From a bacterium (lineage in GTDB: Bacteria; Patescibacteriota; Minisyncoccia; UBA6257; MFKM01): a stretch of DNA of 64,000 nucleotides. Position numbers and translations under genes: made by a program. Location of the stretch: NCBI GenBank assembly GCA_030693325.1, contig JAUYAV010000011.1:1368-65367 (forward strand). The letters run 5' to 3'. Numbering within the stretch: position 1 is the first letter of the stretch; each line of letters opens with the position of its first letter. The notes under the pieces are model-generated. The model made no database searches. It saw nothing but the letters and a program-made list of their open reading frames with translations, and was not told the DNA's origin. Below, one piece after another: positions 4,970 to 49,632 of the stretch.

Positions 4970-5105
4970 GGTGGAGCCCGAGAGTCCATATCGACGGCTC
5001 CGCTCGGCACCTCGATGTCGGCTCACCCTATCCTGGGACTGAAGAAGGCCCCAAGGGTTTGGCTGTTCGCCAATTAAAAGGGTACGCGAGCTGGGTTCAA
5101 ACCGT

Positions 5106-5424
5106 TGAGTTCATAAACATAATTACGGTAATTGCCGTAATTACAGTAATTACTGTAATTTTTATGAATTGAACGGTTTGAATCCGAGGATTATGACATC
5201 AATCACGGCGGTTATAGAAAGTAATTTCTATATTCCAATAGTTTAATTAATTTAGCTAACTAATATCGGTGGAACCCTAATTGATGATTAGGGCAATACC
5301 GAGGGAATTCTTTATAAATTAAAGAAGCCCGTAGAGACTAAGCGTTAGCCTCCGCCAAAATTTTGTAAAAAAATGGGCGGATGAAGATATAGTCCAATAC
5401 ACTTAGTAATAAGTGACCAATATG
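5106..5424 (+). mobile_element. ORF-less group I intron in 23S rRNA at the I-CreI/I-CeuI-type site (exon CCGU|CGUGAGACAGG, about E. coli 2593-2596)
   Basis: exon homology breaks after gggttcaaaccgt and resumes at cgtgagacaggttggtctctatc; the 3' part has the group I P7/P3 signature ggcggatgaagatatagtcc; intron ends in G and the upstream exon in U. Confidence 0.7.
5121..5160. repeat. tandem array of the 8-bp palindrome GTAATTAC (9-bp period) inside the P1/P2 region of intron 1, embedded in a larger hairpin at 5097..5180
   Basis: aattacggtaattgccgtaattacagtaattactgtaatt; same array at 7511..7550 and 17545..17584. Confidence 0.8.
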
Positions 5425-5487: not shown

Positions 5488-6235
5488 AAACAAAATTTGC
5501 TACTTTCCGAAGTAATTCGGATTGAAAATTCGGCTAATAACGGTGAAATCTTACCATTTAATTATTACAATCGGTCTTGTGATAATTTACTTGAGGACCA
5601 AGAAATGCTAAGATAATACCGTGGGAAGTCAATCTAAAATCAACTTAGCTTATATAGCTGGATTTCTTGATGGCGATGGAAGCTTAATGCTTCAAATCAA
5701 AAAACGTAAAGAGGGGAATATATCCAAGAGGCGTTTCATGCTAACGATTTGTTTTTATCAAGATTCGCGCCATGATAAGCCCCTTTTATGGATTAGAAAA
5801 ATTTTGGGAATAGGTTATCTTTCCAAAAGAAAAGACGGAATGTCGGAATTAAGAATCAATGGCTTCCGCCAAACGGAAAAGATAATCAAATCTCTGTCGC
5901 CGTTCATTAAATTCAAGAAAGTCCAAGCTAAAATTCTTTTGGCATCGGCGAAGTTGCTTCAAAAAAGCAAACTAACCGGTAACGAATTAAAGAGATTGGT
6001 TGATAATATTCTGAAAATTCAATCAGAAAATTACACAACTAAAAGAAAGAAAACCAAAAGAGAATTGCTAAAAAATTTAGGTTTGACCCCGTAACGACTG
6101 AATTCCGCCGATTGGCGGATGAAGATAATATCAATTTTGATATTATAATACGCCGGCCCCGCTAAAATTTTATTTTTGTAAAAATTTAGGCGGGTGAAGA
6201 TATAGTCTGCGCACATAGTGATATGTGAATTCGTG
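5488..6235 (+). mobile_element. group I intron in 23S rRNA inserted in the sarcin-ricin loop region (exon CUCUAGU|ACGAGAGGACC), carrying a LAGLIDADG homing endonuclease ORF
   Basis: exon homology lost after ctctagt and regained at acgagaggaccgagttgaacg; 3' region has ggcgggtgaagatatagtctg (P7/P3-like); intron ends in G. Confidence 0.7.
5621..6094 (+). CDS. LAGLIDADG homing endonuclease (single-motif, I-CreI-like), intron-encoded, GTG start
   Basis: LAYIAGFLDGDGSL motif; lies wholly within intron 2. Confidence 0.8.
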   Translation: MGSQSKINLAYIAGFLDGDGSLMLQIKKRKEGNISKRRFMLTICFYQDSRHDKPLLWIRKILGIGYLSKRKDGMSELRINGFRQTEKIIKSLSPFIKFKKVQAKILLASAKLLQKSKLTGNELKRLVDNILKIQSENYTTKRKKTKRELLKNLGLTP

Positions 6236-6738: not shown

Positions 6739-7521
6739 ATGACCCCTCGCTTGGTTAAACAACTGCTTTACGGCGCTTTCTATTTTTTAATAATATTTAT
6801 TATTTTTTGGCTGATTTATATTTTATTTTTGAAACCCGCGCCCACTTGTTCCGATGGACATCGGAATCAAAACGAAATCGGCATTGATTGTGGCGGATTT
6901 TGTCCGTCCTGTGAATTAACCCAATTGAAAAATTTGGCGGGTGATTGGGCTTTAGTTTTGCCGGCTGGAGAAAACGGGATAACGCTGTTGGCTGAGATTA
7001 CTAATCCCAATTTGAATTTCGGGGCTGAAAGTTTTTCTTACCAATTCAAAATCATCGGCCCTTTCGGCTTACTGAAAACCGTTGGAGGTCAGTCATCTAT
7101 TTACAGCGGCGAAATAAAATATTTAATAGCAACCGCCGTTCCGGTTAATCCTCAAGACGCAAAACGGGTGGAACTGGAAATATCTGCCTCCAGTACTGTT
7201 TGGCAATCGCAGGAAAAAATGCCCAAACCTGATTTAGCGAATCCCTCTCATCAAACAGTAATTTCAAACGGAAGCGTAATAGTGAAAGGTATTATTAGAA
7301 ATAAAAGTCCTCTTTTAATATCTCAAACAAAAATCATAGCCCTTATTTATAATTTTGATGGAAGCCAAATCCTAAACGCGTCTTACACAACCTTAGCTGG
7401 CCTCAAAGGGGATGAACAGCGGGCCTTTTCCATTGGATTCCCGAAAGGCGATTGGACCAAAAAAATAGATACAAACAGAACCAAGATTTTTATTGAACCC
7501 CAAATTACCAAATTACAGTAA
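6739..7521 (+). CDS. hypothetical membrane-anchored protein with a Cys-rich segment
   Basis: 260 aa ORF; N-terminal TM FYFLIIFIIFWLIYILFL; CSDG...CGGFCPSC. Confidence 0.5.
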   Translation: MTPRLVKQLLYGAFYFLIIFIIFWLIYILFLKPAPTCSDGHRNQNEIGIDCGGFCPSCELTQLKNLAGDWALVLPAGENGITLLAEITNPNLNFGAESFSYQFKIIGPFGLLKTVGGQSSIYSGEIKYLIATAVPVNPQDAKRVELEISASSTVWQSQEKMPKPDLANPSHQTVISNGSVIVKGIIRNKSPLLISQTKIIALIYNFDGSQILNASYTTLAGLKGDEQRAFSIGFPKGDWTKKIDTNRTKIFIEPQITKLQ

Positions 7522-7550
7522 TTACAGTAATTGCCGTAATTACGGTAATT
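7511..7550. repeat. GTAATTAC tandem palindrome array overlapping the TAA stop of the upstream gene
   Basis: aattacagtaattacagtaattgccgtaattacggtaatt. Confidence 0.8.
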
Positions 7551-7558
7551 AAATTTTT

Positions 7559-8623
7559 ATGTTTAAGAAACTTGATTGGTGGCTTATCGGCGCTTTGATT
7601 TTTATGGCCGCGGCCAGTTTAATATCGCTTTCGTCTACCAAACCGGCGCTTTTTCAAATCCAACTTATTTGGTACGCATTGAGCTTTTTGATTATTTTTT
7701 TTGCGGCAAAAATTAACTGGCGTTGGCTTATAACCCAAAATTGGTTTTTGCTGTCTTTCTATTGGCTGACGATCATTTTATTGATTGCCGCCTTTTTTTT
7801 CAGGCCTATCCGAGGCGCCCAAAGCTGGTTGATAATCGGAAATTTCCAGTTTCAGCCATCGGAATTGGCAAAAATTTCCCTGATTCTTATTTTCGCCAGT
7901 TTTTTCTCGCGCCGTTATCTTGAAGTTTCATTGATTAAAAACATAGCCGCTTCATTTTTTTATTTTTTTATTCCGGCGGCGCTGGTAGCGCTTCAACCGG
8001 CTTTGGGTATGGCTATAATTTTTTTCGGTATTTGGTTCAGTTTTTTGATAGTAAGCGGCTTGAAATGGCAGAGGATTTTCGCCAGTTTTTTAATTTTTAT
8101 TTTGGTATTTTCTTTTCTTTGGATGACTTTTCTGAGGCCCTACCAGAAAGAAAGGGTTTTGGGATTTATCTTTCCGGACCGGAATCCTTTGGGAACGAAT
8201 TATAATGTCATTCAGTCAAAAATCGCCATCGGTTCGGCGGGATTATTCGGAAAAGGCTTCCAGCAGGGGACGCAAAGCCGGCTGGGTTTTCTGCCTGAAG
8301 CCCAAACCGATTTTATTTTTTCCGCTTTCGTGGAAGAATGGGGATTGGTCGGCGGCCTTCTTTTGATTGCCGCTTTTTTGCTGATTATTTTCAGAATAAT
8401 TAAAATTGGCATCAAATCGGAAGGCAACTGCGCCAAATTTATTTGTTTGGGCGCCGCTATCGCCCTCGGTTCGCAATTTTTCTTTAATATCGGTTCTTGT
8501 CTGGGGCTTTCACCGGTGGTGGGGATAACTTTTCCTTTTTTCAGTTACGGAGGATCTAGCTTATTGACTAACGCTTTGCTCATCGGTATAATACAAAATA
8601 TTGCAATTGAATCCTCGTTTTAA
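7559..8623 (+). CDS. SEDS-family peptidoglycan glycosyltransferase (RodA/FtsW)
   Basis: 10-TM ORF with SEDS motifs QPSELAKISLIL, LPEAQTDFIFS, FSYGGSS. Confidence 0.85.
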   Translation: MFKKLDWWLIGALIFMAAASLISLSSTKPALFQIQLIWYALSFLIIFFAAKINWRWLITQNWFLLSFYWLTIILLIAAFFFRPIRGAQSWLIIGNFQFQPSELAKISLILIFASFFSRRYLEVSLIKNIAASFFYFFIPAALVALQPALGMAIIFFGIWFSFLIVSGLKWQRIFASFLIFILVFSFLWMTFLRPYQKERVLGFIFPDRNPLGTNYNVIQSKIAIGSAGLFGKGFQQGTQSRLGFLPEAQTDFIFSAFVEEWGLVGGLLLIAAFLLIIFRIIKIGIKSEGNCAKFICLGAAIALGSQFFFNIGSCLGLSPVVGITFPFFSYGGSSLLTNALLIGIIQNIAIESSF

Positions 8624-9653
8624 CAAAAGGGTGAGTTTTATTTTGGTTGGCGGAATAATACTGGCAGCAGTCCTGATTTTGTTTTCTGTTTTTTATTTTA
8701 ACGGGTTGAAGCCGATAGGTTCGGATATAAAATTTGAATTGAAAATTGAAAAAGGGCAGGGATTGAAAGAAATTTCCGCCGCTCTTTCTCAAGCCCGGAT
8801 AATCCGCTCAATAACTGTTTTTAAACTTTACGCTATTTTTACGGGCAAAGCCCGGCATTTGAAATCAGGCATTTATCAATTGAACGGCCGCTTGAGCGTT
8901 CCGGAAATAATTAATTTTTTGATTGATGATTCAAGCCAAGAAGTTTCCATCACTATCACTGAAGGCTCAACTCTTAAAGAAATAGACCGGATTTTGAGTT
9001 CGGCAAATATTATCCCAAAAAATTCATTAGTTAGTTTTTATTTTCCCGTCCATGGCGGGTCCGCCGCAGGCGGAAAAAATGACGAACTAATAAAAGCTTA
9101 TCCTTTCTTGGAAGGTATTGACAATTTAGAGGGTTTCCTTTATCCTGATACTTATCGTTTCAAAATTGACTCTTCAGTCGAAGAGGCAGCTAAAAAATTT
9201 TTTGATAATTTTCAGAACAAAGCTTGGCCGTTAATAAGCCAAAAAAATAATTGGTATCAAATTTTGATTTTAGCTTCTATTTTAGAGAAAGAAGTTCCGG
9301 TTTTTAACGATCAGCAACTGGTGGCGGGGATTCTCAATAAGCGGATAAAAGTGGGAATGCCTATCCAAGTTGACGCGACTGTTCTTTATACTAAATGCCA
9401 AGGGGATTTTTATTCCTGTTCTCAGCGTAAGTTATCAACGGGCGATTTGAAATTGGATTCGCCTTATAACACTTATTTGAATTTAGGCTTGCCGCCGACA
9501 CCCATTGCCAATCCTGGTCAGATGGCGATACAGGCCGCTTTAAGTCCTAAGGCTTCAAATTATTGGTTTTATCTTTCAGATTCCCAAACGAAAGAAACGA
9601 TTTTTTCCGAAACTCTGGAAGATCAAAACAAAAATCGTCAAAAATATCTATAA
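8601..9653 (+). CDS. mltG: endolytic murein transglycosylase MltG (YceG family), paralog 1
   Basis: N-terminal TM; YPDTYRF; VDATVLYT; NTYLNLGLPPTPIANPG. Confidence 0.85.
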   Translation: MQLNPRFNKRVSFILVGGIILAAVLILFSVFYFNGLKPIGSDIKFELKIEKGQGLKEISAALSQARIIRSITVFKLYAIFTGKARHLKSGIYQLNGRLSVPEIINFLIDDSSQEVSITITEGSTLKEIDRILSSANIIPKNSLVSFYFPVHGGSAAGGKNDELIKAYPFLEGIDNLEGFLYPDTYRFKIDSSVEEAAKKFFDNFQNKAWPLISQKNNWYQILILASILEKEVPVFNDQQLVAGILNKRIKVGMPIQVDATVLYTKCQGDFYSCSQRKLSTGDLKLDSPYNTYLNLGLPPTPIANPGQMAIQAALSPKASNYWFYLSDSQTKETIFSETLEDQNKNRQKYL

Positions 9654-9670
9654 AATTATTTAAGATTAAG

Positions 9671-12600
9671 ATGAATTCTTTAACAAAGAAAAATTTCTCT
9701 TCTTATCAAAAACCGTTTATTGAGGAGTCAAATCTAATAGAAATTCAAACTAAATCCTATAAGTGGCTTTTAACCGCCGGCTTAAAAGACCTTTTTGAAG
9801 AATTTTTTCCGATTAAGGACCGAACCGGAAAAGAACTGGAACTTCATTTTCTTGATTTTGATTTTGACGAACCCAAATATGATGAAATTCAAGCTCAGAA
9901 CAAAGAGCAAAGCTACGAAGCCACTCTCCGGGTTAAATTAAAATTAGTAAACAATCTCTCTAAAACCAGCAATACCCAAAAAATTTATTTCGGCGATTTC
10001 CCGATGATGACCGAGCGGGGAACGTTTATTATCAACGGCGTGGAAAGAGTGGTGATTTCCCAGTTAATCAGATCCGCCGGCGTTTATTTCTCGGCCGATA
10101 TTTTCCGGGGACGGAAATTTTTCGGCGCCAAAGTGATTCCTAATAGGGGCGCGTGGCTTGAAATAGAATCCGAACCCAACGGTTTCATCGGCGTAAAAAT
10201 AGACCGGAAAAGAAAAGTTCCGATTACCTGTCTTTTGAGAATTTTTGCCGCGGTTGCCGATAAAAAGAAATCGCTTACCAATGAAGAAATTCTTAAAATT
10301 TTCGGCAAAGCGATTGAACCGACTCTCCTGAAAGATACCGCCTCCAATGATGACGAATCTTTCGTGGAAATTTATAAAAGATTGCGTCCCGGCGATTTAG
10401 CTACGGCTGACAATGCCCGTTCTTTAATCCAGCCGATGTTTTCGCGATTTGACCGTTATGATATTTCTCCGGTTGGCCGTTTTAAAATTAATCAGCGGTT
10501 GGATCTTAAAAAAGAATCGCGACAACTTGATTTGGAAGATCTGATAGCAATTATCAAAGAAATTGTAAAACTTAATAACGAACCGATGGCCGAAGCCGAT
10601 GATATTGACCACCTCGGTAATCGCCGCGTGAGAGCGGTGGGAGAATTGGTTCAGAACAGATTGCGGGTCGGGTTCGCCAGAATGCGCAGGGTTATTCAGG
10701 ACAGGATGTCAACCTTAAACGCTATGGAAATATCAATGCCGACACAGTTGATTAATCCCAAAATTTTGATAGCGGTGGTAAAGGAATTCTTTATGCTTTC
10801 CCAGTTTTCTCAGTTTATGAACCAAGAAAATTTCTTGGCCGAACTTGAGCATAAGCGTTTGCTTTCGGTTTTGGGTCCCGGCGGATTGACTCGCGAGCGG
10901 GCCGGATTTGAAGTCCGCGATGTTCATCGTTCTTACTACGGACGTATTTGCCCGATTCAAACTCCCGAAGGAGCTAATATTGGATTGGTCAATCACTTAG
11001 CCAATCTCAGCCGGGTGAATGAATTCGGTTTCCTGGAGGCGCCATATTATAAAGTTAAAAATGGGATAGTCGGTTTGGAAGTGATCTGGCTTGACGCTTT
11101 TGAGGAAGAAAAATATAACATCGCTCACGCCGCCATTGATATTGATAAAAAAGGAAAAATTTTAGAATCCACGGTTGAAGCGAGAATTAAAGGCGAGCCG
11201 GCCACTTGTTTAAGAGAAGAACTTGATTTTATTGATGCCGCTCCGCATCAGGTTTTTTCCCCGGCCGCTTCCTTGATTCCTTTTATTGAACACGATGACG
11301 CCAACCGGGCGTTAATGGGTTCAAACATGCAACGACAAGCCGTTCCGCTGATTAAACCGGAAGCTCCGTTAGTAGGCACCGGGCTGGAAGGAAAAATCGC
11401 CGAGAATTCCCACCAAGTGATTACCGCTCCGGCTGACGGAGAAATTACCGTCGTTGACGCTAAACATATTGAGCTGAAAACTGCCGCGGGAACAAAAAAA
11501 TATGATTTGATTAAATTCAAACGGTCCAATCAATCAACCTGCATCTCTCAATATCCGGTTATCAAAAAAGGACAAAAAATAAAGAAAGGGGATTTTTTAA
11601 CCAGCGCCTCTTCAATAGACAATGGCCAGTTGGCATTAGGGCAGAATCTTTTAGTGGCTTTCACTCCGTGGGAAGGAGCCAATTTTGAAGATGCGGTTAT
11701 TCTTTCGGAGAGAGTAGTGAATGATGACCGTTTCACGTCCATACATATTGAAGATCACTACTGTGACGTCCGCGAAACCAAACTTGGCCCGGAAATTACT
11801 ACTCCTGATATTCCCAATGTATCCGAAGATAAATTAAGAAACCTTGATGAAGAGGGAACTGTTAGAATTGGAACCGAAGTTAACCCGGATGATATTTTGG
11901 TGGGAAAAATTTCTCCAAAAGGGGAATCTGAATTAACCTCCGAAGAACGTTTATTGAGGGCTATTTTTGGCGAAGAAGCCCGCGATGTTAAAGACACTTC
12001 TCTGGTAATGCCTCACGGAGAACAAGGGCGGGTTATTGGCATAAAAATTTCTTCCCGTGAAAAAGGAGACCAACTTGACCCGGGCGTCATAAAAAGAATC
12101 CAAATCCAGGTAGCCCAGTTAAGCAATATCCAGGTCGGCGATAAATTGACGGGCCGCCACGGAAATAAAGGCGTCATTTCTCAAATCAGACCGGTTGAAG
12201 ACATGCCTTATCTTGAAGATGGAACGCCGGTTGACGTGATTCTTAATCCTTTGGGCGTTGCTTCCCGGATGAATATCGGCCAAATTTTGGAAACCCATTT
12301 GGGTTTTGCCGCCAAAAAATTAGGATATCAGGCGGTTACTCCGATTTTCACCGGCGCTTCTGAAGACCAAATAAGAGAAGAACTCAAGAAAGCCGGTCTG
12401 CCGGAAGACGGAAAAGTAAAAATTTTTGACGGCCGGACCGGTGAAGCTTTCCGTAATCCGATAACGGTCGGCTACATATATGTAATGAAGCTTAACCACT
12501 TGGTTAAAGATAAAATTCACATGCGGTCTACCGGCCCCTACTCTCTTATCACTCAACAGCCCTTGGGCGGCAAAGCGCGTCTTGGCGGCCAGCGTTTCGG

Positions 12601-15600
12601 AGAAATGGAAGTCTGGGCCCTTGAAGGGTACGGCGCCAGTCATACGCTTCAGGAAATGCTTACTATTAAATCCGATGACGTAATGGGCCGTTCTTCAACT
12701 TTTGAATCCATAATCAAAGGAGAAAAAATCAAAAAACCCAGTTTACCGGCTTCCTTCAATGTTTTGGTAAGTGAAATTAAAAGCTTGGGATTGGACGTGG
12801 AAATAATAAAATCCAACGACCAAAAAGACAGGTTGGAAAAAGACCTTAAAGATATTCAGGCTATTTCCATAAAATTGGCCTCGCCGGAAAAAATTATTTC
12901 TTGGTCTTCAGGAGAAGTCACTAAAGCCGAAACCATCAACTACCGCACCCAACGACCCGAAAAAGACGGATTATTTTCCGAGAGAATTTTCGGACCGACC
13001 AAGGACTGGGAATGTTATTGCGGCAAATATAAAAAAATCCGTTACAAAGGCGTGGTCTGCGACAAGTGCGGCGTTGAAGTCACTCGCTCAATAGTCAGAC
13101 GCGAACGGATGGGGCACATTAATTTAGCCGCTCCGGTTGTTCATATTTGGTTTCTGAAAAGCGTCCCTTCAAGATTAAGTTTGATTCTTGACGCGCCCCT
13201 GCCGAAACTGGAAAAAGTCATTTATTACGCCTCCTATATTGTCACGGCTATTAATAAAGACAGCAAAGATTATGAATTTAAAAAGAAAGAACTGCTTGCC
13301 GAAAATATCAAACCAGGGACAATTTTGAACGAGAACGAATATCTTGATTTAAGCGAACGTTTTGAAAAAACCTTGGAAATTAAATCCGGCGCCGAGGCGA
13401 TTCGGAAAATTTTAGAGAACTTAGACCTTAAAACTCTGGTTCATCAGCTGGAAAAAGAACTAGAAGAGACCAAAGACGCCAATCGCCAAATACGAATTTT
13501 AAAACGGCTCAATTTGGTAAAATCCATGATAAAATCCGGCATCAGACCCGAATGGATGATTATGAATGTCTTGCCGGTTTTGCCTCCCGATTTAAGGCCG
13601 ATGGTCGCTTTAGACGGCGGTCGTTTCGCCACTTCCGACCTTAACGATCTTTATCGGAGAGTTATTAATCGCAATAATCGTTTGAAGAAACTGCTTGAAT
13701 TGAAAGCGCCGGAAGTGATTGTCACTAACGAAAAGCGAATGTTGCAGGAAGCCGTTGACGCTTTAATAGACAACGCCAGTTCCATCGGCGCCCAACAACT
13801 TTCCGCTCAGCGCCGTCCATTAAAATCCCTGGCTGATATGCTCCGGGGCAAACAGGGCCGTTTCCGCCAAAATCTTTTGGGCAAACGGGTTGATTATTCC
13901 GGCCGCTCCGTAATTGTCGTCGGCCCCGAATTAAAACTTGGCGAATGCGGTTTGCCTAAAAAAATGGCCTTGGAACTTTTTCGTCCTTTTATTATCCATA
14001 AAGTTATTGAACGCAGTTTGGCTCATAATATTAAAAACGCCAATAAATTTATTGACCAGGGTTCGGACGAGGTCTGGGCGATTTTAGAAGAAGTCATCGC
14101 GGACAAAAAAGTACTGCTTAACCGGGCGCCGACTCTCCACCGTTTGAGCATCCAGGCCTTTAAACCGATTCTTGTGGAAGGATTGGCTATTAAAATTCCG
14201 CCGCTGGTTTGCGCGGCTTTTAATGCCGACTTTGACGGCGACCAAATGGCCGTCCATCTGCCGCTTTCCGAAGAAGCTCAATATGAAGCCAGAGAACTCA
14301 TACTCTCTACGGTTAATCTCTTGAAACCGGCTTCAGGCCACCCGGTCGTCAGTCCTACTCAGGATATCGTCTTGGGCTGTTATTTCCTTACCAAACTCCA
14401 GCCGGAAGCGAAGGGAAAAAATTCAATCTTTTCAAGCTTTGCCGAAGCCACTTTGGCTTATGAGCGCGGTTTTCTTGACCTTAACGCGCCGATTAAAATC
14501 GCCCTTCCGAAAAGAAGCAAAAAACTCATAGATACAACTTATGGCCGTTTAATCTTCAATAATCAGCTTCCGAAAAATTTTGATTTTATCAACGAACTGC
14601 TCAATAAAACCGCTCTCTCAAAAATCAGTTCCTTGATTATAGAAAAAGTGGGCATCAATCAAGCCGCCGTTTATTTGGACAACATTAAAAATATCGGCTT
14701 TGAATACGCCACCATTTCCGGAATTACCTGGGGAATGGACGATTTGAAAATACCGGAACAAAAACCTCAAATCATTGAAAAAGCGGAAAAAGAAGTAGCC
14801 ACGGTCAATGACGAATTCCGCCAGGGATTATTAACTAACGAAGAAAGAAAAAATCAGGTTATTATTATTTGGGATAAAACCAATAAAGAAATCGCCAGTC
14901 TTGTTCCTAAAACATTCCATCCCGACAATCCTGTCTTTATTATTTTAGATTCCAAAGCCCGCGGCGGCTGGGCGCAAACGGCCCAGATGACCGGCATGAA
15001 AGGATTGGTTATCAACCCGAGTGGAGAAGTCATTGAATTGCCCGTTAAATCATCTTATAAAGAAGGATTGGACATTTTAGAATACTTTATTTCCATTCAC
15101 GGCGCCCGCAAAGGCCAGGCCGACACCGCGCTCAGAACGGCAGAAGCCGGATATTTGACCCGCCGTTTGATTGATGTAGCCCAGGACGTAATAATCCAGG
15201 AGGAGGATTGCCAAACAGAAGAAGGAATTGAAATTTTCAGAAAAGAAGGGGACGAATACGGTTATCATTTTGCCGAGCGGCTTTATTCGCGAACGGCTTT
15301 GGAAAATATAAAAATTAAAAGCAAAATTATCGTGAAAGCCGGTGAAGTTATCGGCCGCGAAGCCGCCGAGCTTATTGATAAATCAAAAGTGGAATCAGCT
15401 AAGGTCCGCTCGCCGATTACCTGTAAAACTCTTTACGGAATTTGTTCGCGCTGTTACGGCTTGGATTTAGGAACTAACCAGCCGATAAAACTGGGAGAAG
15501 CTGTCGGGATTATCGCCGCTCAATCAATCGGCGAGCCCGGAACTCAGCTTACTTTGAGAACCTTCCATTCCGGCGGCGTGGCCGGGATTGATATCACCCA

Positions 15601-16363
15601 CGGTTTGCCGCGGGTAGAAGAGGTTTTTGAAGCCCGTTCGCCTCGCGGGAAAGCCATCCTGGCCGAAACTGATGGCGTTGTTGAATCCATTAAAGAAGAT
15701 AATTCAATAAAAATCGTAAAAATAAAAAGTTCGGCTTCAAAAGGCAAAAAAGCCAAATATTTTGAATATACGATTCCTCGGACGACCATCCTTTTGGTAA
15801 AAACCAATGACAAAATCGTTAAGGGCCAGCAAGTCAGCGAAGGTTCAATTAATTTAAAAGAGCTTTTAATCGCCCAAAATAGCCGAGAAGTGGAGCGCTA
15901 TATCGTCAACGAAATTCAAAAAATTTATGTCCCCGAAGGAACTATTATCAATGACAAGCATATTGAAATAATCATCCGCCAAATGTTTTCTCGGGTAACA
16001 ATTAAAGAAGAAGGAGATACTAATTTTGTCATCGGCGATGTCATTGAAAAATCAAAATTCTTGGAAGTTAACCGGCAAACCAAAAAACTCAAAGGCGAAC
16101 CGGCAAAAGCCCAGCTTATTTTGATGGGCATCACCCAGGTCAGCTTAACCACTGAAAGTTTCCTCTCGGCGGCTTCTTTCCAGGAAACTTCTCGCGTCTT
16201 GGTAGGGGCGGCCATCAGCGGCAAGGTTGATAAACTCCGCGGCCTTAAAGAAAACGTGATTATCGGCCGCTTGATTCCGGCTGGCATCGGCTGGCGGGGA
16301 ATACCCGTGGAAGCCGTCAGCGACGAAGAAGAAAATAAAGAGATTGAAGAAGGCAACAAATAA
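9671..16363 (+). CDS. rpoBC: fused DNA-directed RNA polymerase beta-beta' (rpoB-rpoC) in one uninterrupted reading frame; junction near nt 12850
   Basis: RpoB motifs ([15 protein letters not shown], rif region [18 protein letters not shown]) run without a stop into RpoC motifs ([28 protein letters not shown]); ATG at 9671 begins [11 protein letters not shown]. Confidence 0.9.
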
Positions 16364-17339: not shown

Positions 17340-17546
17340 ATGAATAAGAAACAGTGTTTTTTTTGTTCCCAAAATTTAAAAGACGTTGATTATAAAGAGA
17401 TTGAATTACTCCGGCGTTTTGTGTCCGGCCAAAGCAAAATCATTGACCCGCGATATTCCGGCATCTGCGCCAAACACCAGAGAAAACTGGCGCAAGCGAT
17501 AAAAAGAGCCCGGTATTTAGGATTATTGCCGTTTGTTTCAAGATAA
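17340..17546 (+). CDS. rpsR: 30S ribosomal protein S18
   Basis: CFFC...DYKEIELLRRFVSGQSKI...RKLAQAIKRARYLGLLPF. Confidence 0.9.
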   Translation: MNKKQCFFCSQNLKDVDYKEIELLRRFVSGQSKIIDPRYSGICAKHQRKLAQAIKRARYLGLLPFVSR

Positions 17547-17584
17547 TTACAGTAATTACTGTAATTACCGTAATTACGGTAATT
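17545..17584. repeat. GTAATTAC tandem palindrome array overlapping the rpsR TAA stop
   Basis: aattacagtaattactgtaattaccgtaattacggtaatt. Confidence 0.8.
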
Positions 17585-17593
17585 GAATAAAAA

Positions 17594-18124
17594 ATGTCTT
17601 TCGATTTTTATATTTTTCAAGCTTTCCATAATTTAGCCAATAAGTCTAATTTTTTTGATGGGCTGATTGTTTTTTTGGCCGGCTACCTCCAGTATGTTTT
17701 ATTAGCTTTGGCGATTTTTCTGTTGCTTGCGAAAATAAAAGATTGGCGCCATCAGCTTTATATCGTTTCGGTTTTTCTACTTTCGGCTATTATCAGCCGG
17801 GGATTGATTACGGAAATTATCCGATTTTTCTATCACCGATTAAGGCCATTTTTGGCTCTCAATCTTACGCCCCTAGTCAAAGATTTCAGCGGCTCTTTCC
17901 CTTCCGGCCATATGACTTTGTATTTCGCTCTGGCTTTAACTATTTTTTTGATAAGCCGAAAATGGACCTGGTTTTTTGTCGCCAGCGTTATTTTGATGGG
18001 CCTGGCAAGAATCGCCGCCGGCGTTCACTGGCCTTCGGATATTATAGGCGGAATTCTAATTGCTATTATCAGTTATTTTATTGTCAAAAAAATTCTTCCC
18101 TCAAACAATAAAACCGCCAATTAA
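17594..18124 (+). CDS. PAP2-family membrane phosphatase (undecaprenyl-diphosphatase or PgpB-like)
   Basis: PAP2 motifs RLRP, PSGH, ARIAAGVHWPSD. Confidence 0.8.
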   Translation: MSFDFYIFQAFHNLANKSNFFDGLIVFLAGYLQYVLLALAIFLLLAKIKDWRHQLYIVSVFLLSAIISRGLITEIIRFFYHRLRPFLALNLTPLVKDFSGSFPSGHMTLYFALALTIFLISRKWTWFFVASVILMGLARIAAGVHWPSDIIGGILIAIISYFIVKKILPSNNKTAN

Positions 18125-18489: not shown

Positions 18490-19299
18490 ATGGCCCGCGT
18501 TATTGCAATCTGTAATCAAAAAGGGGGAGTCGGAAAAACAACCACGGCGATGAACTTGGGCGCTTATTTAGCCGCTTTGGGACGGCGCTGTCTTTTGGTT
18601 GATTTTGACCCCCAAGCCAACGCCACTTCCGGTTTGGGGATAACGCCGCCACAAGAGTCAGTTTACACCGCTTTGATGAGCGGTCTAATCCCCAGCCATT
18701 TGATCAGAAGAACCGCCATTTTCGGCTACGAAGTTCTGCCGGCTTCCCAGGATTTAGCCGGCGCTTTGGTGGAATTAATTTCTTTGCCCGAGCGGGAATA
18801 TCAGTTAAGAAAAACTATCAATCAACTCCGGCATTTATACGATTTTATATTAATTGACTTGCCGCCCTCGCTTAATCTTCTGACTGTTAACGGGTTGATA
18901 GCCGCCGATGAAGTTTTGATGCCGATTCAATGCGAATATTACAGTTTGGAGGGGATAGGCCAGCTTTTAAAAACTATTGACCTTATTCGCGAAAATCTCG
19001 GCTATAAATTAAACGTGGCGGGTGCGGTTTTAACGATGTATAATAAAAAAGAACGGCTTTCTCGGGAAGTGGTTAAAGAAGTTAGAAGACATTTTCCTTA
19101 TCATGTTTTTAACTCTGAAATACCCCGAGCAGTCGCTTTGGCCGAAGCCCCAAGTTTCGGCAAACCCATTATTCTTTACGCTCCTAACACCCAAGCGGCT
19201 CGGGCTTATCTGCTTTTAACCAAAGAAATCATCAGCCAACAAGAGAAAGGCGCAAATAGTCAATTCGCTAATCAAGTTTTTGGTAACCTAATAACATAA
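18490..19299 (+). CDS. parA: ParA/Soj chromosome-partitioning ATPase
   Basis: deviant Walker A KGGVGKTT. Confidence 0.9.
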   Translation: MARVIAICNQKGGVGKTTTAMNLGAYLAALGRRCLLVDFDPQANATSGLGITPPQESVYTALMSGLIPSHLIRRTAIFGYEVLPASQDLAGALVELISLPEREYQLRKTINQLRHLYDFILIDLPPSLNLLTVNGLIAADEVLMPIQCEYYSLEGIGQLLKTIDLIRENLGYKLNVAGAVLTMYNKKERLSREVVKEVRRHFPYHVFNSEIPRAVALAEAPSFGKPIILYAPNTQAARAYLLLTKEIISQQEKGANSQFANQVFGNLIT

Positions 19300-19309
19300 T
19301 TTTTATAAT

Positions 19310-20344
19310 ATGCTCGGACGAGGTTTAGAATCTTTAATACCACGGAAAGATAATAAAGAAACGCCGGAAACCGAACAAAAAAATGCGTCTTCGGCGTCGG
19401 CGCCGGCTTCGGATTTTTTTTCATCCGATAGTCCGGAACTTAAAAAAGATTTAGCTGGTGTCTTACCTAAGCCGGAAGAAAATTTGAAATTAAACATCCA
19501 AGAACCTGCGCCGAAAAAAGATTTTCAGGAACTCCCCAGAAAACATCAGGAAGCCATATTTTTGATTGAAGTTGATGAAATCAAACCCAATCCTCATCAG
19601 CCAAGGCGCCATTTTGACGAAGAATCATTGAAAGAATTAGCCGCCTCCATTCAGGAATTCGGCATTCTCCAGCCGCTTCTCGTTTCCAAAATTGAAGAAG
19701 AAACCGAAAACGGCACCAAGGTAAGCTACCAATTGATAGCCGGTGAAAGAAGGTTTATGGCCGCCAAAATGCTCGGCCTGGAACGGGTGCCGGCAATTAT
19801 TAAAAAAATTGACCTTGAAACCAATAACCTGGAAATGGCGATCATTGAAAATATCCAGCGTGTTGACCTCAATCCGATAGAATCAGCCCGCGCTTTTGCC
19901 AAACTCCAGGACGAATTCCGCTTAACCCAGAGAGAAATCGCCCAAAGAGTGGGAAAAAGCCGGGAAGCGGTAGCCAATACTTTGCGGTTATTAAGCTTGC
20001 CCTCAAATATCCAGGATGCCCTGGCCCAAAAGAAAATAAACGAAAGCCAGGCCAGGATGCTTTTAACCGTCAGTGATTTAAACCAACAACAAGCGCTTTT
20101 TCAGGAATTAATAAACGGCGGCCTCAGTGTCAGAGATTTACGGGAAAAAATAAATCCCGAAGAAACAACCGGCCGTACCGAAGACCCGGAAAGTAAATAT
20201 ATGGAAAACCGGCTGGAAGAAGCGCTCGGCACTAAAGTCAATATCAGTAAAAATCAAAATAAAGGCAAAATCGTCATTAAATTTTTCTCACCGGAAGAAC
20301 TTGACGCCATTATCAAAAAAATCTGCCAGCCAGAGTCAGAATAA
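19310..20344 (+). CDS. parB: ParB/Spo0J partition protein
   Basis: ParB box LIAGERRFMAAKMLG; HTH; low-complexity N-terminus. Confidence 0.9.
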   Translation: MLGRGLESLIPRKDNKETPETEQKNASSASAPASDFFSSDSPELKKDLAGVLPKPEENLKLNIQEPAPKKDFQELPRKHQEAIFLIEVDEIKPNPHQPRRHFDEESLKELAASIQEFGILQPLLVSKIEEETENGTKVSYQLIAGERRFMAAKMLGLERVPAIIKKIDLETNNLEMAIIENIQRVDLNPIESARAFAKLQDEFRLTQREIAQRVGKSREAVANTLRLLSLPSNIQDALAQKKINESQARMLLTVSDLNQQQALFQELINGGLSVRDLREKINPEETTGRTEDPESKYMENRLEEALGTKVNISKNQNKGKIVIKFFSPEELDAIIKKICQPESE

Positions 20345-22273: not shown

Positions 22274-24913
22274 TTAATTTGCCGCTTCATAAAAAAATTG
22301 GCCATAAGAATATTTATCTCCAGTAGCAGCAAAAGAACTACCATCCATATCTTTATTGAGAAGTATAATCGCTCCCCCTCCATTAGTTATATCTATTATT
22401 GCAATACGAGAAGCAGTATCATAAGTCCGCCCAAATGCCATTGAATTGGATGGCATTGAAATTGTGTAAGGAACTGTGAAGGATGTGACTGTACTATTGC
22501 TTACTCCAGTTAATTTATATTGAACAAACACTGTTTTTCCAATTTTCTTAGTCCAAATATATCCGACTGGAGTAACCCAACCTACCTTCGTAGAAATAGC
22601 AAAGTAATCCGCCCACACACCTTCTTCCGCCGGTTTCGGGCTAAACGCAAACGGCGTTGAGCCTTCTACTACCATACATCCGTCAAGGTAAGCAGTTACA
22701 GTCGTTCCAGCACCAAAAAAGATATAAGGACCAAAATTAGTTGAACCTCCATTATTAGACACCAGATGCGTAACAGTTAACCTTTGCCAAGTTGAATCTC
22801 CTGTATGGTAGGGTGAATAGTCTGCAATACCTGACCCAAATTCGTAAGCGACAACTCTTAATCTATCGGCTACATTACTCCAAGCCCAACAACCCATCGT
22901 TACTGTTTTACCTCTATAAGCCGCTATCCCCATAAGCTGATACAACCCATTAAAGTTTGCACCAGTCATTTTCGCAGAGTATGTTCCTAATTTAACAGTT
23001 GTTGATTCTCTAGATACAGCATCTCCACCAAATACCCACCCATCAGGGGCCGCACTTGTTCCTGCTGACCAGTTCTCAAAGTTGCCGTTAGAGAGGAGAT
23101 TGGTGGGGTTCATATTAGAGGCGTTCCAATTAATATTTCCACTTGCATTCACATTGCCAACATTCAAATCACTGGCAGTTATCACGCCGTAAGGCGCGGC
23201 GGGCGGAGTGAAATTGGAAGTCCAGCGGGCGATGCCTTTGGAGATGCGGAGTTCGTCGAGATAGCCGTTAAAATATCTAATTGAGCCACGCCATCCTATG
23301 GTCCAGTTACCTGTAAAATCAGGTATAGAATACGAAGCTGAAAAATCTCCAGTTGCTACCTGTATGCCATTGTAATACATTTTAAGATTATCTCCGTTAC
23401 GAACAACAGCAATGTGATACCAAGTATCTGCAACTATGGCTGTATCGGAAATAACATTTATTTTAACAACGCCTCCTTCTACAACCAAAAACCTAAATTT
23501 ACCCAAATCTGGACTCGTATTTCCATCTATAACTATAAGATTAGCTCCATCATTATACTGACTCCAAATAGGGGCATAATCATTTAGTGTTCCAGTAAAT
23601 CTCACCCAAGTATCAATAGTAAAATTCCCCGTTCCAAAAGCCCAATCTGCGGAATCTGGAACAGTAAGATAATCCGTGGTTCCGTTGAATAAGCCGCTCT
23701 TGGAACCAAGCTTGTATTGAGCCGTGGTTTGGGTGGCAGAGCCGACAGCGGTAACGGCTTTGCCGGTGGCCGAATCACTGAAGGAAGTTCCTGAACTCTC
23801 CATATGAAGCAATAACTTGTTGTAGCTATCTGTTGTCTGCAATCCTTGAGAAGCGTTTATCAATCCAGCAACGTCTAACATGAAACCTGGGCTCGCCGTC
23901 CCGATGCCGACGTTGCCGCCGTTTGGATTTAACGATAAATTATGATAAGCGCCAAGAGTTGCTCTGTTGGTAGATTGTATCCAGCCAGTAGGTCCACTTC
24001 CGTAATATCCAAAATCCATAACACCGTTATTTAATCCTTGCCCTATACGAAAACTTCCTGTTTGTGTTGAGCCAGTTGTTGCCGGAAGTCCGTTATCTCC
24101 TAAAATGTCTAATTTTAAACCCGGGTTCGCCGTCCCGATGCCGACCTTGCCGGCGTTGGTATTGTAGATATTGGTGGAGGAAGCGGCCCAACCAACGCCC
24201 AAATCAGCCCAGGAGCCACTCTTATAACCCCGGAAAGCATTACTCGCGGTGTTGTAGTAGATAGACCCGTTCTGGGCTCCGGCCACGGGGTCGATAGTCA
24301 ATTGTCCCACGTTAAGAAGATTAGAAATGTTTACATCTTTCCATTTGTAAGTGGCATCACCCAGGGAAAAAGAATTGTCGGCGTTGGGAATCAAACTATC
24401 GTCAAAGGTGGCAGCGCTCACTCTGCCGATGGCTATTTTGAGAGCTCGCGTTATCTGCTGATAGGGATTCTGGCTGTTATAGGTCAAAGCCAGGTTGATC
24501 TGGACAATGGCGTGGGCGTCGGGGTTCTCATACTTGGTGGCCTGGAACTGGGAAACCTTGACCTGGCTGTTGGTCAGAGGGGCGATGGCTCCGGTTCCCT
24601 GTTTGAGGTAGATGCCGTTAGCATCGGAGGAAATGATGGTGGGGTCTAAAGAGGAGGAAGCCATCCTCAAGACCAAACTGGACGAAGCGACTCCGGCCGG
24701 ATTTTCAATGTTGGCGCTTTCTCTGACCAACCTTTGAATAGTGGATTGGACAAAAGCCAACTGCTGGGTGAGCTCGGAATCAGCCGAGGTTTGGGTCTGA
24801 ACTCTGGTGAAGGTGATGAGGACGCCGGAAAAGACGCCGACGGAGATGGAGAAGATCACGGTATAGACTAACAATTCAATCAGAGTGAAACCTTTGTTGT
24901 TGGGGTGATCCAT
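22274..24913 (-). CDS. giant type IV pilin-like protein with lectin-like domains
   Basis: N-terminal prepilin signal (MDHPNNKG|FTLIELLV); repeated fibre-like VGIGTANPG/VGIGTASPG motifs; a LamG/concanavalin-like domain; a CBM-like region (NLLSNGNFENW); 879 aa. Confidence 0.8.
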   Translation of the reverse strand: MDHPNNKGFTLIELLVYTVIFSISVGVFSGVLITFTRVQTQTSADSELTQQLAFVQSTIQRLVRESANIENPAGVASSSLVLRMASSSLDPTIISSDANGIYLKQGTGAIAPLTNSQVKVSQFQATKYENPDAHAIVQINLALTYNSQNPYQQITRALKIAIGRVSAATFDDSLIPNADNSFSLGDATYKWKDVNISNLLNVGQLTIDPVAGAQNGSIYYNTASNAFRGYKSGSWADLGVGWAASSTNIYNTNAGKVGIGTANPGLKLDILGDNGLPATTGSTQTGSFRIGQGLNNGVMDFGYYGSGPTGWIQSTNRATLGAYHNLSLNPNGGNVGIGTASPGFMLDVAGLINASQGLQTTDSYNKLLLHMESSGTSFSDSATGKAVTAVGSATQTTAQYKLGSKSGLFNGTTDYLTVPDSADWAFGTGNFTIDTWVRFTGTLNDYAPIWSQYNDGANLIVIDGNTSPDLGKFRFLVVEGGVVKINVISDTAIVADTWYHIAVVRNGDNLKMYYNGIQVATGDFSASYSIPDFTGNWTIGWRGSIRYFNGYLDELRISKGIARWTSNFTPPAAPYGVITASDLNVGNVNASGNINWNASNMNPTNLLSNGNFENWSAGTSAAPDGWVFGGDAVSRESTTVKLGTYSAKMTGANFNGLYQLMGIAAYRGKTVTMGCWAWSNVADRLRVVAYEFGSGIADYSPYHTGDSTWQRLTVTHLVSNNGGSTNFGPYIFFGAGTTVTAYLDGCMVVEGSTPFAFSPKPAEEGVWADYFAISTKVGWVTPVGYIWTKKIGKTVFVQYKLTGVSNSTVTSFTVPYTISMPSNSMAFGRTYDTASRIAIIDITNGGGAIILLNKDMDGSSFAATGDKYSYGQFFYEAAN

Positions 24914-25104: not shown

Positions 25105-25163
<59 letters not shown>

Positions 25164-25331: not shown

Positions 25332-26243
25332 ATGTTTCAGAAAAATATTCCTTTAAAAAAATACACCAGTTTCAAAATCGGCGGACCGGCCGATTATTTT
25401 TTTAAAGTTAGAAAAATAAAGAATCTTATTGAAGCCGTTAAAGAAGCAAAACAAAATAAAATACCAATTTTCATTTTTGCTGGAGGAACTAAAATATTAG
25501 TCAGTGATAAGGGCATCAAGGGGTTAGTTATAAAAATTCAAACTTCAAAAATTGAAATTAAAAAAAACAGAATCATCAGTGAAGCGGGAGTTAATTTAAA
25601 TAAATTAGTAGCCGCGTCAATTAAAAACGGCTTAACCGGCTTGGAATGGGCGATTGGCATTCCCGGCACAATCGGCGGCGCTATTCACGGCAACAGCGGG
25701 GCCTTCGGCGCTTCTATTTCCAACTCCGTAAAAAGCGTCACCGCCTTAAATCCGAAAAATTTTAAAATTAAAAAATATTCCGGCAAGCAATGCCGCTTCG
25801 GCTATCGGGACAGTATTTTTAAAAAAAATAAAAATATCATTCTTTCGGTGGAATTGCAGTTGAAACAAAACAAATCAAAAAATAATTTGGAAACGATTAG
25901 AGGATATTTAAAAAGAAGAAAAGAAAGAATCCCTGAATATTACTCGGCCGGAAGTGTTTTCAAAAATCTTAAATTCAAATCTTTAAACAAAGACATCCAA
26001 AAAATTATTCCCAAAAATAAAATCAAAGGCGGCATGGTGCCGGCGGGCTATCTTATTGAAAACTGCGGGCTAAAAGGAAAAAGTAGCGGTGGAGCGAAAA
26101 TTTCCGAACAACAAGCCAACATTATTATTAATTTTAATAAAGCCAGAGAAAAAGACGTTTCTTCGTTAATTGATTTAGCTAAAAAACAAGTCAAGAAAAA
26201 ATTCGGGGTTAAATTAGAAGAGGAAATAATTTATTTGGGCTAA
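25332..26243 (+). CDS. murB: UDP-N-acetylenolpyruvoylglucosamine reductase MurB
   Basis: YTSFKIGGPADYF; GIPGTIGGAIHGNSGAFG; GYRDS. Confidence 0.85.
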   Translation: MFQKNIPLKKYTSFKIGGPADYFFKVRKIKNLIEAVKEAKQNKIPIFIFAGGTKILVSDKGIKGLVIKIQTSKIEIKKNRIISEAGVNLNKLVAASIKNGLTGLEWAIGIPGTIGGAIHGNSGAFGASISNSVKSVTALNPKNFKIKKYSGKQCRFGYRDSIFKKNKNIILSVELQLKQNKSKNNLETIRGYLKRRKERIPEYYSAGSVFKNLKFKSLNKDIQKIIPKNKIKGGMVPAGYLIENCGLKGKSSGGAKISEQQANIIINFNKAREKDVSSLIDLAKKQVKKKFGVKLEEEIIYLG

Positions 26244-41564: not shown

Positions 41565-41760
41565 TAAATATGAGACCTAACCCGTAGGGGCAACCTACGG
41601 CAGGGTTATAAAAACCAGTAACGGATAAAAAGCTCCTAGTCAGAGCTCCGTTACTGGTCATATGGGGAAACCCGTATGGGGGTCGCAAGACCTCGCTGGC
41701 TGGGAGCTTTGTGTTTTCATAAAGCTAAAATGTCGAACCCAGCTAGCGTTAGTTTCTTTA
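41565..41760 (+). ncRNA. GC-rich structured leader or candidate cis-regulatory RNA upstream of a secreted-protein gene
   Basis: stack of hairpins in AT-rich surroundings: cgtagg-GGCAA-cctacg (GNRA loop), accagtaacgga...tccgttactggt, ggtc-GCAA-gacc, repeated cccgtaNgggg; identity unknown. Confidence 0.3.
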
Positions 41761-47813: not shown

Positions 47814-48710
47814 TTAACCGATACGCTGGATTATCTCTTTTATGCTTTTAACTAAACCGTTCTCAAAATTTACCTTAGGTTCCCAGCCGAGATGTTTTTT
47901 TGCCTTGGTATAACTGCCCCAAAAGCCGGAAACATCGTAAGAACGCTCCGGAATATTAACTATTTTTGAGCGACTTTCCGTGATTTTTATTATGAGTTTT
48001 GCAAGATCATAGAGCGAGATAGGATTGTTGGCGCTTAGAGTGAAGTCATCGCAAAAGCCATTCGGCTTATTTTTAACATACCCGATAGTTTTATTCACTC
48101 CATTAATTACGTCATCAATATAAACAAAATCAAACATCTTCTTCTTGCCGTTGCCCTCAAGAGTTATCGGCTTATTCTTCAAGGCGAGAATTATGAAACG
48201 GGGGATAACCCGGTCCAGAATATCGTCGGCTCCGGTATAAACCCCGCAAAAGCGCAGAATGAGCGCGCGCAAGCCGTAATTACGGGCGTACTGTTGCATT
48301 AGATCTTCGCCGGCAACCTTGGAAACGGCGTAGGCGTTCAAAGGCAGACGCAAACTTTTTTCGGTTACTGGAAATTTGGTATGACCGCCATAAACCTCTC
48401 GGCTTGATGAAAATACCACCCATGCCTTCGGATTTTTCTTTCTTACCGCTTCAAGAACGTTTGCCGTCCCGCCGATATTCGTCGTAAGGCAAGTATGCGG
48501 ATCTATGAACGCAACCTTCGGCCGCGATATGGCCGCAAGATGAATAACTCCGGAAACGCCCCTGACCGCTCTCTCTAATCGCGCTAAGTCGCGAACGTCA
48601 TCTTTGGGATTATTTTTTATGTCGTAATTAATAAATGAATAAATATGGCCGAGCTTGCGCCTAAGGCAAGTGCCAACATATCCCGAACCGCCTGTAAGTA
48701 ATATTTTCAT
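47814..48710 (-). CDS. NAD-dependent epimerase/dehydratase (UDP-sugar 4-epimerase-like SDR)
   Basis: GGSGYVG Rossmann motif; YAVSK catalytic motif. Confidence 0.8.
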   Translation of the reverse strand: MKILLTGGSGYVGTCLRRKLGHIYSFINYDIKNNPKDDVRDLARLERAVRGVSGVIHLAAISRPKVAFIDPHTCLTTNIGGTANVLEAVRKKNPKAWVVFSSSREVYGGHTKFPVTEKSLRLPLNAYAVSKVAGEDLMQQYARNYGLRALILRFCGVYTGADDILDRVIPRFIILALKNKPITLEGNGKKKMFDFVYIDDVINGVNKTIGYVKNKPNGFCDDFTLSANNPISLYDLAKLIIKITESRSKIVNIPERSYDVSGFWGSYTKAKKHLGWEPKVNFENGLVKSIKEIIQRIG

Positions 48711-49607: not shown

Positions 49608-49632
49608 AACTAAGTCCAATCGATTGGACTTA
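49608..49632 (-). terminator. hairpin ctaagtccaatcgattggacttagg overlapping the fmt stop (same family as 30124..30152)
   Basis: perfect palindrome. Confidence 0.55.

Follow-up and report, generated by a model that had tools for sequence, protein, structure and literature searches.

Optional palindromic arrays on a 9-bp period at stop codons and in a 23S rRNA intron of Patescibacteria

Genomes of the candidate phyla radiation are small and tightly packed and are usually described as repeat-poor. Tandem 8-bp palindromes are known from MetJ metboxes and the iterons of ribbon-helix-helix proteins, in which 2–5 such palindromes each accommodate one dimer; in metboxes the palindromes adjoin directly, with a period of 8 bp, and their promoter locations are conserved between relatives. 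Hairpins formed by single-stranded DNA are found at the ends of IS200/IS605 elements, which insert strand-specifically and without duplication 3' of an AT-rich target (TTAC for IS608, TTTAA for IS605), and HUH/Y1-type transposases insert 3' of a short AT-rich target, likewise without duplication.

REPs of Proteobacteria are short extragenic palindromes present in several copies per genome, which lie past stop codons in operons, give hairpin transcripts and vary between relatives (PMC3116915, PMC3337134). TAACTGA heptamers of Beggiatoaceae, Cyanobacteria and Bacteroidetes, like the STRR heptamers of Cyanobacteria, are intergenic tandem units, often a few nucleotides from a start codon and sometimes in ribosomal-protein operons, and close relatives have shorter, repeat-free spacers; the distribution of these heptamers crosses phyla with no known mechanism of transfer, and long arrays occur in Bacteroidetes (PMC4679880). 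Other optional tiny hairpin or palindromic repeats are the double-hairpin elements of Allomyces mitochondria, the GC clusters of yeast and the palindromic microsatellites of Fusarium. The organellar hairpin repeats occupy intergenic, intronic and rRNA variable-loop sites and are inferred to be mobile with no known enzyme (PMC7218506, citing Paquin et al. 2000).

The arrays described below were analysed in a 64-kb stretch of patescibacterial DNA, referred to as the window. Searches of the literature, both for the motif and for repeats of 9 bp, gave nothing relevant, and no description of such arrays in Patescibacteria was found.

Sequence, position and folding of the arrays

The window has a G+C content of 41%, and its proteins are closest to those of Paceibacterota and Jorgensenbacteria MAGs. 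TAA accounts for 81% of stops, and intergenic spacers have a median length of 37 nt. Three arrays of GTAATT(A/G)C units, each followed by one further nucleotide (N) to give a 9-bp period, were present (A1, A2 and A3, Table 1), and the sequence-only reading, which had described an array of about 40 bp with this period at the same three sites, was accurate on this point. Thus, A1 reads ATAATTAC G GTAATTGC C GTAATTAC A GTAATTAC T GTAATT, A2 reads CAAATTAC CAAATTAC A GTAATTAC A GTAATTGC C GTAATTAC G GTAATTAA, with units 1 and 2 degenerate and one step of 8 nt, and A3 reads ATAATTAC A GTAATTAC T GTAATTAC C GTAATTAC G GTAATTGA. The change of one unit to GTAATTGC, also described earlier, was seen in A1 and A2 but not in A3, and the 5' boundary of A2, though not the array itself, had to be moved about 10 nt further 5' into coding sequence.

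Table 1. Coordinates of the arrays and neighbouring features (window positions unless a locus of a relative is named)
Feature	Position	Strand	Remarks
Group I intron 1 of 23S rRNA, ORF-less	5106..5424	+	319 nt, ends in G5424
Long hairpin across 5' splice site	5093..5185	+	exon GGGUUCAAACCGU paired to AACGGUUUGAAUCC; P1/P1-extension region
A1	5119..5160	+	4.6 units; spacers G,C,A,T; one GTAATTGC unit
260-aa membrane protein, FxLYD-like	6739..7521	+	C-terminus rewritten by A2
A2	7501..7552	+	2 degenerate translated units (7501-7517), then 4 units; spacers A,A,C,G; one GTAATTGC unit
TAA stop of 260-aa ORF	7519..7521	+	within GTAATTAC unit 7518-7525
RodA/FtsW-family gene	7559..8623	+	start 6 nt past A2
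A3	17543..17584	+	4.6 units; spacers A,T,C,G
TAA stop of S18 (17340-17546)	17544..17546	+	also TAA of first A3 unit
PAP2-family gene	17594..18124	+	ATG 16 nt past last full A3 unit, 9 nt past terminal half-unit
Small repeats of relatives	L171 3674-3750; L172 3674-3744; L173 3867-4054; L123 9064-9089

Tandem Repeats Finder returned a period of 9 and 4.6 copies for A1, A2 and A3 alike, and these were the only period-9 arrays of the window with at least four copies at 84% matches or more; a comparable array of any other 9-mer was not found in the 64 kb. The count of GTAATTAC in the window was 8 as against 0.76 expected, an approximately ten-fold excess (8 was reached in 0 of 100 shuffles), and the two-unit pattern with up to 2 mismatches gave 25 matches as against 1.2 expected. 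A2 and A3 differ at 3 of 43 positions, while the array of a relative that is orthologous to A2 (L136) is more divergent. Outside the arrays, CCGTAATTACGG was noted once (48274-48285) and the two-unit pattern matched at 49992-50006, in both cases within an ORF and at chance level. At 49992-50036, GTAATTGCTGTAATT is followed by four TTGAAAA-like heptamers, all in a predicted formyltransferase-like ORF (49630-50490, minus strand), and this repeat is probably coding and coincidental.

A1 is located in the first of two group I introns of the 23S rRNA gene. The core of this intron (5190-5416) matched Rfam Intron_gpI (RF00028) with 77.9 bits, and its borders were set against the intron-less 23S gene of a relative (L126), with the junction between GGGTTCAAACCGT and CGTGAGACAGG. 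A conserved hairpin of approximately 25 bp starts at the 5' splice site, and A1 extends it coaxially as its tip, in keeping with the earlier placement of this copy inside a hairpin of an ORF-less group I intron; the RNA fold of 5095-5185, including A1, had an energy of -43.5 kcal/mol (z = -11). Intron 2 (5488-6235), also of group I, lies within the sarcin-ricin loop sequence (between CUCUAGU and ACGAGAGGACC) and encodes a LAGLIDADG homing-endonuclease ORF (5621-6094); it was below the Rfam gathering threshold and was not called. The 23S region of one relative (L122) has a GIY-YIG ORF in place of the LAGLIDADG ORF, and a free-standing LAGLIDADG_3-domain protein of the window (48797-49495, minus strand) adjoins tRNA-Gln outside any intron.

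A2 lies between the genes for the 260-aa membrane protein and RodA, and A3 between rpsR (S18) and the PAP2-family gene, at the end of the rpsF-ssb-rpsR operon. At both sites the first unit, which for A2 is the first complete one, provides the TAA stop of the upstream gene, as had been read from the sequence.

The single-nucleotide spacers of the arrays differ in order but not at random. Thus, the bases are A,T,C,G in A3, G,C,A,T in A1, T,A,G,C in an array of a related genome (L078) and G,C,T,A in another (L154), so that each array has two adjacent complementary spacer pairs, one A/T and one G/C, and forms two neighbouring hairpins. In six 5-unit arrays, 96% of hairpin cells pair, and compensatory changes occur in both spacer pairs (AU, UA, GC, CG), including a G-C double change in L099; the covariation score, for this small set of six arrays in a register picked by hand, was matched in 1 of 500 shuffles. 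The unit variant is strand-polarised, with GTAATTGC found 7 times on the sense strand of related arrays as against 0 for its mirror image GCAATTAC, and 19 times as against 4 on the sense strand of Saprospirales arrays (see below); in an RNA hairpin GTAATTGC gives G.U pairs. Judged from these alignments, pairing and polarity indicate that what is recognised or selected is one strand (RNA, or one of the two DNA strands) rather than a set of independent duplex dimer sites. Folding energies did not consistently favour the sense strand and were as good or better for the antisense strand of A2 and A3. Because spacer orders are unlike between copies (ATCG, AACG, GCAT), the arrays are not simple copies of one master.

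Scans for regulatory features were largely negative. No sigma-70 promoter was called, TTGCNG-16-TGTAAT being found only in A1 and lacking the conserved A at position 2 of the -10 element. Intrinsic termination was rejected as a general role, given that only A2 passed the terminator scan (3 G-C pairs), that A3 has no U-tract and that A1 is inside an rRNA intron. Comparison with RNA families gave only spurious microRNA-like hairpin matches below threshold.

Several other features of the window were noted. A single ORF of 2266 aa (9563-16363) with beta and beta-prime domains represents an RpoB-RpoC fusion, which is 2230-2236 aa long in relatives and short for both subunits together. The parA and parB genes (18490-20344) are 1 kb downstream of A3. 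A perfect (CT)28 repeat (25106-25161) lies in the gap between two divergent genes, a large pilin-like one (22274-24913, minus strand) and a MurB-like one (25332-26243), and slippage there could switch expression. A full-length LOOT RNA (Rfam RF03000, 92 bits) was located at 41574-41694, just upstream of a 419-aa ORF.

Presence and absence in related and distant genomes

Comparison of orthologous sites showed that the arrays are optional, all three sites being polymorphic in relatives. Gene order is kept in these genomes (rRNA, 260-aa protein, RodA, YceG, fused RpoBC, S6, SSB, S18, PAP2, ParA, ParB), and about 124 kb of their syntenic DNA contained no GTAATTAC. Among the matches listed, arrays were found at other loci of the same relatives' MAGs, namely in JAVHOD01 (L029, L078), MFKM01 (L038, L042, L100) and JBBTUZ01 (L054, L099); copies number 3 in the 64-kb window, which is part of a contig of 186,611 bp, with at least 2–3 loci in each related MAG. 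L054 and L038, with 87-93% amino-acid identity, each have an array where the other has none. At the position of the L038 array, L054 (7290-7470) contains array remnants broken by a hairpin element of about 150 nt, which suggests one small element inserted into another.

At the A1 site, L122 and L123 contain intron 1 at the same position with the hairpin stem kept, albeit with changes, and with a short unrelated loop instead of the array; this loop is ATATAAATCAAG in L122 and another sequence again in L123. The intron is absent altogether from L126. This comparison, which the sequence-only reading had proposed, bears out its suggestion that the intron and the array move independently of each other.

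At the A2 site, the translated degenerate units give the 260-aa protein the end ...EPQITKLQ* as opposed to ...EPRP* in L123 and L126, where the spacer to RodA is 26 nt and 7 nt, respectively, and holds no array. The corresponding protein of L122 ends in ...EPLSAKF*, and its TAA abuts the ATG of the next gene (0 nt), with a remnant tail, so that this junction looks like a decayed array; identity of the protein to that of the window is 85% for L122 and 73% for L123. In L136 and L137, on the other hand, the array is present in diverged form and the unusual step of 8 nt recurs (...EPLITKLP*); the stop of L136 also coincides with the TAA of a unit. Because L136 shares this array at only 60-84% amino-acid identity to the window, either the array at this site is old and has been repeatedly lost or the site was hit twice.

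The S18 site was the only one with a clean empty-versus-filled junction. Thus, S18 of L176 ends at the same TAA as in the window and is followed directly by the next gene (...GTTTCAAGATAA-A-ATG, i.e., AGATAA-A-ATG), whereas the window has 46 extra nt right after this stop, beginning with TTAC; the first A3 unit therefore took over the native stop as its TAA. At the same junction, TAGRATT heptamers form an inverted array in L171 and L172, and yet another hairpin element is present in L173.

Small repeat families observed at such junctions in relatives (Table 1) include the TAGRATT inverted arrays, AATTTCC/GGAAATT arms and CTAGTGG x2, and arrays of short units that form hairpins seem to be characteristic of the clade as a whole. 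Since relatives hold unrelated hairpin or tandem elements there, the junctions act as safe havens for insertions, and all insertion sites of the arrays were harmless, being 0-10-nt spacers between co-transcribed genes or the tip of a peripheral intron hairpin. A longer conserved intergenic element of about 170-216 nt (AGGGCTTT...ACCCCGCCC-hairpin-GGGCGGGGTGCTGAATTTTATGGATAAATTTT...AAATTCGC) was also noted; it fills the whole stop-to-ATG gap of S6/SSB in two relatives and that of SSB/S18 in a third (L171 2785-3000; L176 2833-3000; L173 3451-3665). The window, in which the two spacers measure 4 nt, does not contain it. It had no Rfam match and resembles a further mobile intergenic element or else a promoter or leader cassette.

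In seven independent arrays (A2, A3, L029, L038, L072, L078 and L099) the stop of the upstream gene is the TAA of a unit, and the next gene is on the same strand, usually 6-52 nt past the array. No ORF read through an array among those inspected. The arrays A2, L136, L078 and L099 begin with a degenerate unit, (A/C)AATTACNG, that codes for (K/Q)-L-X, with the stop supplied by the TAA of the next unit, and the in-frame TAAs every 9 nt thus serve as back-up stops. Some phasing on stop codons is to be expected, as the spacers are tiny and TAA makes up 81% of window stops; a fixed phase in which the inserted DNA starts with TTAC right past the TAA is more than would be expected by chance. No consistent target-site duplication was found at the A1-A3, L072 or L078 junctions, ATAA or AAATT recurring at some of them.

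Beyond the clade, a search of a genome collection was performed with a permissive pattern (R allowed at one position), and most of the matches listed were coding repeats (AIAVI membrane helices, GNY repeats). A stricter metagenome scan gave 37 loci. Apart from relatives of the window, these were mostly long arrays of up to 16 units on contigs of 50-60% G+C, located between genes, with uniform spacers and mirror-image 9-mer flanks (GTAATTGGN ... NCCAATTAC). A contig set with such long arrays, CXWJ01, belongs to Saprospirales (Bacteroidota), its RseP being 93% identical to that of a Haliscomenobacteraceae MAG and a SusC-like receptor being present. In viral contigs, GTAATTAC arrays gave 5 matches as compared with 6, 1 and 2 for three control palindromic 9-mers, and an association with phage was rejected for want of an excess. 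As the control 9-mers were as frequent there, matches of two to three units scattered over other phyla (Pseudomonas, Spiroplasma and others) are considered background and not a universal distribution. BLAST gave no look-alikes in annotated plasmids or phages, possibly owing to its low-complexity filter, no shared neighbour protein was found beside arrays in other phyla, and the short Logan contigs recovered for the source region held no further arrays.

Origin of the arrays and competing explanations

The explanation that we prefer, with a probability of roughly 50%, is that the arrays represent a non-coding, hairpin-forming element of about 40 bp, similar to a REP or MITE, that is seeded 3' of TAA and remodelled in 9-bp steps. 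It builds on the optional occurrence of the arrays, their site preference and phase, the covariation of their hairpins and their strand polarity, as observed; mobility, copying between sites and the nature of the enzyme are what comparison of the sequences would suggest. The sequence-only reading had left the choice between an iterated protein-binding site and a small insertion element, and the latter is favoured by the absence of arrays in relatives, their presence at other sites and their phasing on TAA, while no positive support was found for the protein site. With regard to the targets it named, TAA sites are supported by the phasing on upstream stops, while hairpin loops are represented by a single case.

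According to this mobile-element explanation, an existing array would be copied to a new site directly 3' of TAA, usually ATAA, either through microhomology or template switching on TAA/TTAC or by a putative single-strand-specific enzyme of the HUH/Y1 transposase type. Once seeded, the self-complementary 8-mer would permit slippage in 9-bp steps and fold-back copying, and the latter would generate the complementary spacer pairs. The array would be transcribed with its host RNA and fold into AU-rich hairpins. In the intron it would merely lengthen the 5' splice-site hairpin, and between genes it would form an intercistronic hairpin with an in-frame back-up TAA every 9 nt, so that tolerance could be explained by extension of an existing helix or by location between cistrons. 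Any benefit to the host, such as protection or processing of mRNA 3' ends, would be secondary and is putative. A more far-reaching version is doubtful, namely a strand-specific mobile class of about 40 nt that would insert 3' of TAA, mainly at stops and sometimes in hairpin loops, as single-stranded double hairpins with the help of a putative trans-acting enzyme, and that would be shared or transferred between Patescibacteria and Saprospirales; if true, it would be a stop-codon-homing element that also provides back-up stop codons. No transposase or DNA-binding domain was found in the ten uncharacterised ORFs of the window, and no RAYT (Y1 transposase) gene among the window ORFs examined.

Selection on the RNA, with hairpins between cistrons that process or stabilise transcripts, terminate weakly or tune termination and re-initiation, and with spread as a secondary matter, would account for the sense polarity of the G variant and its G.U pairs, for the location of A3 at the end of the rpsF-ssb-rpsR operon, where relatives have other hairpins, for the end of arrays 6-16 nt ahead of the next start codon and for the terminator-like scan result of A2; TAACTGA heptamer repeats have likewise been proposed as post-transcriptional sites (PMC4679880). 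This explanation is nevertheless unlikely. L176, L126 and L122 have no such element at the same junctions, control of termination or translation would be senseless for A1 in an rRNA intron, A3 lacks a U-tract and, as noted, antisense folds are equal or better for A2 and A3. Binding of a protein dimer to each 8-bp palindrome in duplex DNA, as an operator or as a centromere-like or nucleoid-organising site near parAB, appears more unlikely still, although the palindrome is perfectly conserved in fixed 9-bp phase, the three arrays lie within 12.5 kb just upstream of parA/parB, and any mobilising enzyme would itself have to recognise the motif. The window also has no canonical parS (up to 3 mismatches) anywhere in its 64 kb, which is uninformative because parS sites are sparse, and a parS/ParB centromere was rejected since the arrays show no similarity to TGTTTCACGTGAAACA. 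The positions are not kept in syntenic L122-L128 and L171-L177, with the same gene order including parAB, and an operator, iteron or centromere array finds no support in this respect; moreover, none of the arrays has a promoter position, A1 being within an rRNA intron while A2 and A3 separate co-transcribed genes, covariation makes the spacer base part of a hairpin pair, for which independent dimer sites would have no need, variants are strand-polarised, and the ten uncharacterised ORFs offer no candidate protein.

A lower probability is assigned to a purely local origin, in which a TAATTAC-like seed that happened to be present at each site would have been expanded there by replication slippage, without any copying from site to site. 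Unit numbers and spacers do vary between copies and with respect to the orthologous L136 array, the Saprospirales arrays, with uniform spacers and as many as 16 units, are typical of slippage, and control 9-mer arrays were about equally common in viral contigs (see above). Against local growth, empty sites are seedless (TAA-A-ATG in L176 and the L122 intron loop), the 8-mer occurs at three sites here and at other sites of related genomes yet nowhere in their 124 kb of syntenic DNA, and no other 9-mer of the window is arrayed in a comparable way. Although mis-assembly of short repeats is conceivable in principle, an artefact of assembly or sequencing has a negligible chance of being the explanation, because A3 was identical in an independent Logan assembly (L121); similar arrays are present in many unrelated assemblies, and the arrays fit reading frames and the intron helix exactly.

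If the mobile-element explanation holds, 0-10-nt spacers and a self-splicing rRNA intron have been colonised by several tiny hairpin or tandem families with turnover faster than gene divergence. The GTAATTAC family is an unusually clean one, with a perfect 8-bp palindrome, 9-bp phase, paired spacers and an anchor on stop codons, and offers a workable case for the spread of short elements without an obvious transposase, a matter also raised by REPs, STRRs, TAACTGA repeats and organellar hairpins. Such arrays rewrite protein C-termini, as in the 260-aa protein, create tandem in-frame stops and can mislead gene calling and assembly.

Comparison with described repeats

Like REPs and REPINs, the arrays are extragenic hairpin-forming palindromes past stop codons. 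They differ in that REPs are imperfect palindromes of about 20-35 bp, often in inverted pairs, as opposed to 9-bp-phased tandem 8-bp palindromes, and that REPs, with tens to hundreds of copies per genome, have a GTAG head and a single-copy RAYT gene with REPs on its flanks, whereas the arrays have neither GTAG nor an inverted doublet with spacer and no RAYT was seen in the window. To our knowledge, REPs have not been described in Patescibacteria. MITEs have terminal inverted repeats and target duplication and are usually 50-500 bp, in contrast with the arrays, which are about 42 bp without consistent duplication.

Similarity to STRR/TAACTGA repeats was evident from the occurrence of the arrays as a short tandem unit in spacers near start codons that is missing from relatives, and the hosts overlap as well, Saprospirales-type Bacteroidota also having long GTAATTACN arrays. 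Those repeats are non-palindromic heptamers, however, whereas the unit described here has 9 nt, and thus keeps the reading frame, with a self-complementary core of 8 nt; in this lineage the arrays are also short (4-5 units), fold into hairpins through their paired spacers and have a stop codon as anchor. The double-hairpin elements resemble the arrays in their two adjacent hairpins and optional intergenic or intronic sites, a likeness of behaviour only since the sequences are unrelated, and differ in being organellar, with no phased 8-bp palindrome and no tie to stop codons. MetJ metboxes differ in period (8 bp as opposed to 9 bp), in the conservation of their positions and in their location in promoters, where none of the arrays was found. 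The resemblance of TTAC and TAA to IS200/IS605 targets is only a lead; neither a transposase gene nor separate left and right ends that bear guide sequences could be identified for the arrays. Thus, the arrays act like REPs, organellar double-hairpin elements and STRR/TAACTGA repeats, yet miss the defining features of REPs and REPINs, MITEs, heptamer repeats and operators.
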